The position numbers were made by a program. From a virus, in the UHGV virus genome UHGV-1630393: a stretch of 25,276 nucleotides of DNA; one strand, 5' to 3'. The stretch's first letter is position 1. Each line of letters starts with the position of its first letter. Of the stretch, positions 15,001 to 18,000 are shown one piece after another.

Positions 15001-18000
15001 CCCTTGCTTCACACCATGCAACCGGAGATATACCGGAACGGGTGTATTCAGCAATATATTCCTGCTGCAACGCCCCCCAGTCCGGTCTGTTCATCAGTTA
15101 GTCCTGATTTTTATCCACCCTGAGTAACTCACGCAGAGCAAAGGCATCCCCTTTTCTGGCAAGCTTAAACAATGCGGCTCGTAGCTCGGCTTCACCTTTC
15201 GCTCTTCCCTTACGGATGGATGCGTAAAAATTTGTCATTGCTTCCCGATTTTCTTTCAGTCGGTTCAGATCAACATCCAGAACATCAGCGATTTGTTGTG
15301 CGGTCATCCGGCACGCAGCCAGAGACTCGACTTTCGAATACGGAATCATTTGTCACCCCCATTGGTATGCAGGGTGTCTTCTTCCTGTATTTTTCGTTAA
15401 GGATTTTTACTGCAGCGTTGTTCCAGGTGACCTGATGGTGAATGCGTTTATGGCTGGCCCCCATCAGTGAGATTTTTACGCACGAGGGCGCATACATGAC
15501 GGAGTAAAAACTTTTAACGTAGGTTCCGGAATCCAGATACAGCTCGGTCATTCCGCCGCTGTTTTTCTGCGTCTGTTTCTGTCCCAACTGGACAGCACCA
15601 ATCGTCATAAACAATTCACCACGGCGACCGAGATTCGTGTAAGTATTCACATCCTCGTTAATGCGCCCCATGAATGAGAACGGTCGCTCAACCGAACAGA
15701 TAAAGCTGTTCATTGCCTTGCGTTTCACCCATGAAGCATGGCCGCCATTGTCACCAAGAAAATCCCCGCCCTGCGACATAGCGATGGAAAGCGCAGGAAT
15801 TGATTCGTAATACGCCAGCATTTCAGAAAGGATTGCGTCCAGTTTCCTTATCGGGAAATAGGCCTGGTCATAGTTGTGATCCACCCGAAACTGGAACTCA
15901 TGATAATCATCATCGAACTGAATGAAGTATTTACACCCGACCTGTTTTGCCAGGTCGAAGCAGGCATTACGTGCGTAAAAAATTGAGCGACGGTCACCGA
16001 AATTATCGGCTTCGTCAAAACGACTGGCGATATCGGCTTTAGAAAACACCAACACCTGTTTACCAAATTCAGCTATGTACTGATGCCGGGTTTTATCTTC
16101 ATCATCAACGACGATAAAAATTTTACCGGTATAGCCAGCTCGACGTAATGTTCGGTAAGTCAGAACTTTGTCCGGTCGCCCGTGAGTCAGAATAAAGGCG
16201 CAAAAATCATCACGCATATTCCTCCTCCCCGCCGTGCATGATCTCCACCATGCGTTGCGTCATCCGGACAAATCCATTTTCAATGGCCTGCTGATAATCA
16301 ATGATCACCAACGCCGACTCCTCAAAAAGATGCTGAATTTCAGCGGGGGCGTGAACGTAATAGTCCGCAATTCTGCTGAAATCAAACACCGTGTGACGCT
16401 CTGCTGCACACAGGAGGAATTTTTCGATATCAGGATCAAGGGACGCCGAACGTATCCGGCTGACCAGCTCCTGAGTTTTCGTATCGTCGTACAGTTCGCC
16501 GATATCCGGTTTATCGCCTGACGGCTCATAAACAGGCGTATCAATTTTCGTCGTGTACGGCTCCTCCTCAATTCCGGTGCCCGGCAAAACTTCCGTCAAC
16601 AGTTCGTCAATATCTGTTTGGCTGAATCCTGTCAGGGAGATATCAAAATCAGCATTGATTAGCTCTGACAGTTCCATCCGTAACAGATCTTCATCCCAAC
16701 CAGCGTTAAGCGGCAGACGATTATCTGCCAGGCGATACGCCTTTTTCTGATCCTCCTTCAGGCAAGACAAAACAATGACCGGAACGGAATCCATTTTGAG
16801 CACTTCAGCCGCCATAACGCGACCGTGACCAGCAATAATTTCGCCCTTTTCGTCAATCAGCACTGGATTAGTCCAGCCAAATTGCTTAATGCTTTCTACC
16901 AGTTGAGCCACCTGCTCAGGGCTGTGGGTCCTGGCGTTGTGCGCATATGGAGACAGTTTTTGTAACGGGCGATAGACGATCTTCAATTTCTCGCTCATAC
17001 AGCCTCGCTTTATATATAAAAAAGCTCACCAGCAGCCAGTGCGCTGGGTGCGCGGCGGGTGCTGCTGGTGAGCCTGGCATTATCGCAGCCCCTCGCTGAA
17101 GGGCTGCTGTAATACCTAACCATCCTGATCCGTTTTTTCTACCTGCAGACATTGAATATTCCCGTCCCGGAAATACTCCACCTGAGCAGCAAGGTCAGTG
17201 TTGCGCGGATAATATCCCAGACGGTACATATTCCCCAGAACATAAACCTCCTCGACCTGACGCCCGTCTGCCGTTAATCGGCGAACAATGACAACATTTG
17301 TCCCGTTTCGTCAGCAAGCACCGTATTCGACCAGCCGAATTCGCTTTTAGAAAAAACTCCGCATTAATAATCAAGCCAGGACACTAAATGCAGCCAGATA
17401 TTAAAATACACAACACATTCATACAATTTAACACCTTCTAATACTCAACAAACCCCAATAAAAACTACAATTAGCTATTCCGCTGCTAATTCAATTGCCC
17501 ATACGTGATTAGGAGTATATGCTTCGCTCGCACAGATATTTACCCTAACATTAGAAAGCACCGCAGCCATTGCTATTTTCCTCATCTCATTGCTCAGATA
17601 ATTCTCGGGATAGTACTGCCCCCCAGGAATGAATCTGGTTTTTCCTGTAGAATCGGTTATATAAATACCCTTACTGTCCCTGTTGGTATCAGATGCTAGT
17701 TTTACCAACTGAACACTCTGTACAAGTTTGGCCGTAGTAGAAGCGCATTTATCCTTAAAAGTTTTACTTACGCCAGCATATGTTGGTAGTGATGCAATAT
17801 TTAAGGCAATAAACAACAACGCAATTGACTTTTTAAAGTTCATCTTTATTTTCATTGTCTTGTAAATCATCCTCAATACTTTGTAAAATCATAAGGGAAG
17901 AACGAATTCGCATAAATCTTTTAAAAGCGACCAAATCATTTTGAGATATTCTATTCGTATAAGAATCGCAGGCATCTAAAATTCGAACCATGTAATCATG

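Follow-up and report, generated by a model that had tools for sequence, protein, structure and literature searches.

A ParB-like helper and a TAGT-family glycosyltransferase encoded ahead of phage terminase genes: a candidate helper-dependent DNA glycosyltransferase

What is the role of two uncharacterised genes that stand just ahead of the packaging genes, at 15285-16998, in the UHGV virus genome UHGV-1630393? The stretch of DNA analysed here, referred to as the window, comprises 25,276 nt, and an earlier note on it had left three possible functions of the two-gene module side by side: DNA modification, a packaging accessory and an anti-defence or defence cargo. DNA modification is the function favoured by the present analysis; a pure packaging role is weakened, and a defence cargo of the moron type is argued against. 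The two minus-strand open reading frames (ORFs) with an 8-nt overlap, as described in that note, are both present, and their products can be assigned as a ParB-like protein, here termed the helper, and a GT-A glycosyltransferase of the TAGT (TET-associated glycosyltransferase) family. In our judgement, there is about an even chance that the two form a helper-dependent DNA glycosyltransferase, which would act late, around packaging, on the phage's own double-stranded DNA (dsDNA). The module has the following parts:

16210..16998, minus strand: ParB-like helper gene (262 aa), the intact counterpart of the truncated ynaK of the K-12 Rac prophage
16714..16998, minus strand: ParB/Srx nucleotide-binding-type N-domain of the helper (~residues 1-95), with box II GHGRVMAA
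16519..16563, minus strand: linear motif P-Y-T-x-K-I-x-T-P-V-Y-E-P-S of the helper (residues 146-160), in a linker predicted to be disordered
16234..16506, minus strand: helical C-terminal domain of the helper, 'Cdom' (~residues 165-255), which has no Pfam family
16210..16230, minus strand: gene junction as read from the sequence, with the Shine-Dalgarno element GGGGAGGAGG at 16230-16221 and the 8-nt start/stop overlap ATGCGTGA at 16217-16210
15285..16217, minus strand: GT-A glycosyltransferase gene of the TAGT family (310 aa), the final ~25 residues being a lineage-specific tail
15906..15914, minus strand: codons of the DDD (DxD) metal/nucleotide-sugar motif of the transferase (residues 102-104), invariant in the transferase alignment

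For the 310-aa product of the second gene, the earlier note had proposed a GT-A-like fold with DxD-type motifs and had found no family that it could name with confidence. The fold proposal holds, and a family can be named after all: the protein has the GT-A nucleotide-diphospho-sugar transferase fold, its residues 8-222 match Pfam PF20691 (TAGT) over profile positions 4-205 of 205 (E=1.7e-35, 123.3 bits, gathering cut-off 27.5), a further strong match is found to PHROG 842 (E=1.6e-101), and RefSeq lists the pair as 'GREB1-related protein' (the transferase) and ynaK (the helper). The motifs IFIVVDDEDK and FIQFDDDYHEF quoted in the note are present and their key aspartates are invariant among homologues; across 24 transferase homologues, R14, D102-D103-D104 and E188-D189 do not vary. 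These residues, assigned by motif order and not by structural superposition, correspond to R...DDD...ED[Y/F], the active-site signature of phage GT-A DNA glycosyltransferases (Pyle et al., bioRxiv 10.1101/2023.12.21.572611), except that the ED is followed by V instead of Y/F. NCBIfam profiles gave no match for the transferase, and a profile built from the TAGT alignment retrieved nothing meaningful from the PDB sequences (E>0.5), so that no TAGT member with a solved structure is detectable by sequence. The enzyme of phage T6 reaches only 37 bits against PF20691, as compared with 123 bits here, which places the window transferase nearer to the core of the family; hhalign comparison of the TAGT alignment with the T6 enzyme gave no match (probability 0.1), and the link between the two runs through the Pfam profile only.

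The first gene encodes a protein of several distinct parts. By profile match (PF02195) as well as by fold, its N-terminal part belongs to the ParB/Srx N-terminal domain superfamily, as the earlier note had rightly guessed; nothing supports the nuclease role that the note had attached to this domain. Box II reads GHGRVMAA in place of the canonical GERRxRA, and G57, G59, R60, A63 and A64 are invariant. In the AlphaFold2 (AF2) model, a nucleotide-binding domain (NBD, residues 1-95) is followed by helices at 103-134, by a stretch at 136-155 with a predicted local distance difference test score (pLDDT) <50, and by a helical domain at 172-254. Within the linear motif, Y148, T149, K151, P155, Y157, E158 and P159 are invariant in the helper alignment, and the pattern Yt.Ki..P.Yep is conserved in 46 loci from many phyla. 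Helper residues 140-262 gave no Pfam match at E<=10, and no structural neighbour of note was found for Cdom. At 50% identity, the Cdom family falls into 1186 clusters; in all of the best 150 helper-domain relatives the domain lies at the C-terminus of the protein, and no Cdom-TAGT fusion ('Rosetta stone') occurs among these 150.

Residues 8-140 of the helper resemble the N-module of fusions between ParB and DNA methyltransferases (PADLOC MTase_II, E=6.7e-37; PHROG 498, E=6.5e-50). The MTase_II match spans only profile positions 11-147 of 436, and no methyltransferase catalytic domain was detected behind the ParB module. The same N-module occurs in 396 phage records, many of which are annotated as DNA methylase. 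Two other identities were considered for the helper and rejected: a partition protein, since it scores 35.6 bits against TIGR00180, under the cut-off of 58.45 (the NCBIfam search yielded sub-threshold matches only), has no helix-turn-helix (HTH) according to Pfam, and carries GHGRVMAA, not GERRxRA, as box II; and a nuclease, of which no defining feature beyond the common fold was found. The labels 'partition protein' and 'nuclease' in phage records are name transfers only.

The proposal that the pair moves as a unit is borne out. Loci were collected via two peptide patterns of this transferase subfamily, and the counts describe this subfamily, not all TAGTs: with hidden Markov models built here, a Cdom gene is found directly upstream of the transferase gene, on the same strand and abutting or overlapping its start, in each of the 47 loci, which span more than 10 phyla, including Proteobacteria, and an archaeal virus. 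Both observations that the earlier note had named as speaking against its module, an assignment to a structural or replication family and a lack of synteny, were absent. By tblastn, the transferase is 39-47% identical in Lactobacillus, Nocardia, uncultured gut and Vibrio jumbo phages and in the haloarchaeal virus HHTV-2 (the archaeal virus homologue at 41%), and a species-level genome scan revealed 47-58% identity in Bacteroidota, Firmicutes, Planctomycetes, Spirochaetes, Chlorobi, Saccharibacteria, Actinobacteria, Desulfobacterota and one archaeon. This diversity came from the scan of genome contigs; a scan of viral contigs returned only near-identical E. coli prophages. The pair is also present in the virulent Lactobacillus phage c5, and a homologue in a Porphyromonas phage with only 26% identity retains the order ParB, TAGT, small terminase subunit (TerS), large terminase subunit (TerL). 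The ParB N-module is below detection in seven loci of the set; in Vibrio phages of 191 kb it is absent from the pair, the transferase gene being preceded by that of a Cdom-only protein of 139 aa in a neighbourhood of primase, exonuclease and helicase genes. With the ParB module variable and Cdom constant, Cdom is to be regarded as the enzyme-specific part of the helper.

Some loci depart from the simple two-gene layout. In a metagenome-assembled genome (MAG) of Ignavibacteriae (L106 156-1736), the helper ORF measures 527 codons from stop to stop and has weak class-I S-adenosylmethionine-dependent methyltransferase matches (Methyltransf_23/12/25, residues 85-187) before ParB_N and Cdom; this may be a methyltransferase-helper fusion ahead of the TAGT gene. 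In a metagenomic enterobacterial prophage (L139 2613-4673), the lysis cassette is separated from the helper gene by three additional genes, encoding a protein with a faint MptE-like match, a 302-aa protein without assignment and a Methyltransf_23 protein; the pathway may be present here in an extended form. A Hyphomonadaceae MAG (L122 3251-5891) has one helper gene followed by two tandem TAGT paralogues, and in a Faecousia MAG (L097 5863-6444) a second, ParB_N-only gene lies directly behind the transferase gene.

In the window, the Shine-Dalgarno element GGGGAGGAGG is located 3 nt 5' of the transferase start, which together with the start/stop overlap ATGCGTGA suggests that translation of the putative helper and transferase is coupled. 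Both genes are under purifying selection, with ratios of non-synonymous to synonymous substitution rates of 0.08 and 0.11, synonymous sites being saturated in the more distant pairs.

These features could combine in the following manner. The 310-aa protein would be a GT-A, DxD-type, nucleotide-sugar-dependent TAGT transferase, and the helper would be its adaptor or activator, not a partition protein or nuclease. The helper, in which a ParB/Srx module, a short stretch of helix, a disordered linker with YTxKIxxPxYEP and a private C-terminal domain follow one another, may bind the transferase through Cdom and the linker motif, and its ParB module may help the enzyme to engage dsDNA, by analogy with ParB176 and its thymine dioxygenase. 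The sugar would be placed on the DNA, which it could shield from the nucleases of the next host. DNA is favoured as the substrate because those PF20691 relatives that have been characterised or assayed glycosylate DNA, because the N-module of the helper is that of the ParB-DNA-methyltransferase fusions, because ParB-like activators of thymine dioxygenases have the same layout, and because the pairing of Cdom and TAGT is obligate in all 47 loci. The Cdom-only protein and TAGT of the Vibrio 191-kb phages, standing among replication genes, point in the same direction, as does the mostly basic nature of TAGT proteins (median pI 8.9). A universal substrate is implied by transferases that remain 47-58% identical across phyla while the terminases beside them belong to at least four Pfam families.

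The position of the pair bears on the timing of such a modification. The features that adjoin the module in the window are these:

15098..15349 (83 aa, first start) or 15098..15307 (69 aa, RefSeq), minus strand: small HTH-like ORF 3' of the transferase gene
14000..15094, minus strand: terminase small subunit (Pfam terminase families and PHROG; RefSeq annotation of the 100%-identical module)
12718..14028, minus strand: terminase large subunit (Pfam terminase families and PHROG; RefSeq annotation of the 100%-identical module)
17027..17047, minus strand: terminator-like hairpin with T-run between the LT-II B-subunit gene and the helper gene (pattern scan and sequence)

The downstream region 12718..15349 on the minus strand matches Pfam Terminase_2, Terminase_6N and Terminase_6C and PHROG 309 and 51. 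The small ORF (15098-15349) resembles an internal piece of the small-terminase PHROG 309 (E=2.5e-22) and overlaps at its start with the stretch coding for the 25-residue, lineage-specific tail of the transferase; Hafnia and metagenomic relatives (L138, L139) have an ORF of ~85 aa in the corresponding position. In most of the loci, no more than a few bases separate the transferase gene from an ORF of 120-220 aa, which is followed by one of 390-640 aa. The large ORFs are assigned to Terminase_6N (17), Terminase_3 (12), GpA (3) and TerL_ATPase (2), at least four unrelated terminase families, and five more are long Terminase_2 small subunits, as in the window; the small ORFs next to the transferases resemble assorted small terminase subunits. 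Two look-ups starting from the helper revealed the same gene order directly behind the lysis cassette, and in phage c5 the pair constitutes the first genes after cos. Since the slot is the same across several terminase families, the pair stayed in place through changes of the terminases next to it. In Streptococcus phage Javan506, the same slot, 5' of a small ORF and TerL, is occupied by a ParB-methylase. Escherichia phage vB_EcoM-473R2 (L137 1-3004) encodes a protein of 196 aa that shares 63% identity with the helper N-module and lacks Cdom; its gene stands directly 5' of a small ORF and a large terminase subunit gene, with no transferase gene nearby, and ParB N-module proteins therefore adjoin terminases even without an attached enzyme.

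The hairpin at 17027..17047 probably marks the end of the toxin moron and would be read through by late transcription. A pattern scan detected no minus-strand promoter-like site at 17000-17475 upstream of the helper gene, and the region scanned has a single promoter-like match on the minus strand, within the TAGT gene. The hairpin and the lack of a promoter-like site 5' of the helper gene are consistent with expression from the late transcript, and the place of the pair in the late operon without such a site upstream is the reason for proposing late action.

Several observations weigh against a sugar on DNA, foremost those concerning the acceptor. The RefSeq annotation of a closely related complete prophage lists no TET/JBP protein, C5-methyltransferase or thymidylate-synthase-like hydroxymethylase, and the annotation of the 31.8-kb virulent phage c5 lists no TET/JBP protein, C5-methyltransferase or hydroxymethylase either; in these annotations, the genomic association of TAGTs with TET/JBP (5mYOX) or a hydroxymethylase is absent. 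The TAGT gene of T6 abuts a homologue of dCMP hydroxymethylase and has no ParB neighbour. Canonical DNA bases have no hydroxyl group. The characterised members of the family in the literature surveyed all transfer to a hydroxyl, namely that of 5-hydroxymethylcytosine (hmC), 5-hydroxymethyluracil (hmU), a sugar or Ser/Thr (GREB1). With no source of hmC or hmU annotated, the acceptor would therefore have to differ from that of the characterised members. The sugar might be put directly on an unmodified DNA constituent, a canonical base or the backbone, at packaging and without a hydroxymethyl-pyrimidine precursor, which we consider somewhat unlikely. Further, ~65% of glycosyltransferase (GT)-containing contigs lack 5mYOX or ThyS, and Pyle et al. 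regard such contigs as 'less likely' to modify DNA. GREB1, a eukaryotic TAGT-domain protein, glycosylates protein and not DNA (PMC7968844). Both domains of the helper are strongly acidic (pI ~4.5) and no recognisable DNA-binding domain is present in it, and the C-terminal half of the transferase model is of low confidence.

The alternative in which DNA is not the substrate at all is protein glycosylation, directed either at the Tyr/Thr/Ser motif in the linker of the transferase's own partner, in a glycogenin-like fashion, or at a virion or host protein. This is unlikely in our view: the linear motif could just as well be a docking peptide, DNA is what the nearest characterised phage relatives modify, the helper N-module is the one fused to DNA methyltransferases, and the Vibrio jumbo phage pair resides among replication genes. 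Virion proteins and small terminase subunits, moreover, vary widely among the carriers, which makes them improbable as common substrates. The location of the pair may also be read as that of a packaging accessory, the helper working with the terminase, for example in the recognition or organisation of concatemers at pac or cos, and the transferase being auxiliary, with no protective modification made. Such a role would account for most of 45 loci having the pair directly 5' of terminase genes, to whichever family these belong, for its place right after cos in phage c5, for the enzyme-less ParB N-module proteins that also adjoin terminases, and for Nocardia phage NTR1 and L112, where no separate small ORF intervenes between TAGT and TerL. 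It is nevertheless rather improbable, because full small and large terminase subunits are already encoded in the window, the HHTV-2 pair is ~3 kb away from TerL, the Vibrio jumbo pair stands in a replication cluster without the ParB module, and a strongly conserved sugar transferase with a seemingly intact catalytic site has no known packaging role; DNA methyltransferases in the same slot suggest that the position reflects the timing of modification.

Very improbable is a lysogenic-conversion or defence cargo that, in the manner of TarP or Gtr, modifies a host surface polymer or incoming foreign DNA. The GC content of the pair (~0.48) equals that of the structural genes (0.48) and not that of the toxin morons (0.35-0.42), the genes are joined by their start/stop overlap and have no promoter-like site 5' of them, and PADLOC gave no defence-system match for the transferase. 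The pair is carried by the virulent Lactobacillus phage c5, an archaeal virus and jumbo phages, and the transferase is 40-58% identical among carriers although the surfaces of their hosts are wholly different. The probability that is left falls to functions beyond DNA glycosylation and these three rivals.

If the helper-dependent DNA glycosyltransferase is correct, the ParB-like activation principle would be extended from dioxygenases to glycosyltransferases. In the literature surveyed, phage DNA glycosylations all build on a hydroxylated base (hmC, hmU or 5-hydroxy-C) provided by a dedicated pathway; a modification of DNA by the present pair would imply new acceptor chemistry, with consequences for the evasion of restriction, for artefacts in the sequencing of prophage DNA and for tools that label DNA enzymatically. 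A sugar placed directly on unmodified DNA would constitute a chemically new DNA modification accomplished by a minimal two-protein system, present in about one sixth of the complete E. coli genomes, and in phages of more than 10 phyla and of archaea. If the partner or another protein is glycosylated instead, the pair would represent a new phage protein-glycosylation system. In either case, few phage accessory modules encountered in this analysis are as conserved and as widespread as this one, and ynaK and ydaY, the pseudogene remnants in K-12 Rac, gain a biological identity (ydaY by position only).

The relation to Rac emerges from the closest relatives. The 2-kb module is 100% identical in E. 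coli strain Ceylon31, the prophage of which occupies the Rac attachment site beside ttcA, and it is found, over at least 80% of its length, in at least 867 of 5426 complete E. coli genomes (~1 in 6). RefSeq places LT-II enterotoxin genes just upstream of the Ceylon31 module. Coordinate offsets between the window and Ceylon31 indicate an indel of ~1 kb between the helper and LT-II B-subunit genes, and this intergenic spot is therefore variable; the ~1 kb excess of Ceylon31 (window 16998-17475 versus L001 13901-15375) carries, besides a KTSC-domain gene, three small hypothetical genes. RefSeq/PGAP labels the helper gene in the 100%-identical record a pseudogene, ynaK 'missing C-terminus' (L001 13644-13901, ~86 codons). 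Contrary to this label, the ORF of 262 codons (16210-16998) is intact and conserved, and the label seems to stem from naming the helper after the truncated K-12 protein. In the Rac prophage of K-12 MG1655 (L133 3151-3754), ynaK encodes 87 aa that align with part of the helper N-domain; ynaK and ydaY lie at the position corresponding to the module, followed by a truncated tape-measure gene, and K-12 Rac appears to carry a deletion remnant of the module. The slot of the window's LT-II genes is taken by trkG in K-12 Rac. Two toxin operons of low GC are present in the window: that at 17475-18612 encodes, by RefSeq names, LT-II heat-labile enterotoxin A and B subunits, and that at ~20180-21437 a scabin-related/pertussis-like ADP-ribosyltransferase and a subtilase-family B subunit. 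Both look like morons on either side of the lysis cassette.

How does the pair compare with known systems? The TAGT family was reportedly defined by Iyer et al. in 2013; the literature search, the reach of which did not extend to that paper, returned no characterisation of the ParB-Cdom/TAGT pair. The beta-glucosyl-HMC-alpha-glucosyltransferase of T2/T6, through which glucosyl-hmC receives its second glucose, is a PF20691 member (PMC13216743), and solitary TAGT homologues of undefined function have been reported in 288 of 753 phages (NAR 2026, PMC13216743). With the T2/T6 enzyme and the GT-A enzymes associated with 5mYOX/TET, the window transferase shares its phage origin, PF20691, the GT-A fold and the R...DDD...ED signature; eukaryotic relatives in PF20691 are kinetoplastid JGT and GREB1. 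The T2/T6 and 5mYOX-associated enzymes adjoin genes that make their acceptor (a hydroxymethylase homologue, or 5mYOX and a C5-methyltransferase), whereas the window type of TAGT is always paired with a ParB-Cdom protein and has no acceptor-gene neighbour annotated across the related prophage. ParB-like and terminase neighbours are mentioned by Pyle et al. in passing only.

On the side of the helper, the nearest precedent is found in the ParB-like proteins, consisting of NBD, helical segment, unstructured linker and C-terminal domain (CTD) without HTH, on which a subclass of phage thymine dioxygenases depends for its activation on dsDNA (O'Toole et al., PNAS 2026, PMC13229309). As in 5mYOX176/ParB176, a protein of this build is encoded beside a post-replicative DNA-modifying enzyme, or presumably so in the window, and the clusters of 5mYOX176/ParB176, like the window pair, are often near terminases; layout, lack of a DNA-binding domain and position beside the cognate enzyme are all found for the helper (AF2 model; 47 of 47 loci). 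The window enzyme is a glycosyltransferase, in contrast to the Fe/2OG dioxygenase of that system, and the C-terminal domain of the helper is distinct from that of ParB176, having no Pfam match and not being a ParB dimerisation domain, with GHGR in box II. The ParB-methyltransferase fusions (PDLC03229, PHROG 498) share with the helper a homologous N-terminal module of 140 residues and the slot at the head of the packaging operon; the helper differs in lacking the methyltransferase domain, catalysis being predicted to reside on a separate polypeptide, linked through Cdom, with a sugar transferred instead of a methyl group. Partition ParB (TIGR00180) resembles the helper in its N-terminal fold only: the helper scores below the cut-off, has no HTH and, beside the identical module, no parA neighbour is annotated. 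A catalogue of ParB-fold fusions includes prophage methyltransferases and does not mention glycosyltransferases (Kaljevic et al. 2025, PMC12704722), and the proposal of Iyer and Aravind that ParB guides modification enzymes during packaging is cited by Burke et al. (PMC8256090). A TAGT-family transferase and a ParB-type activator are each of a known kind; their combination is new as far as the literature surveyed goes, and the acceptor chemistry of the pair is possibly novel as well.

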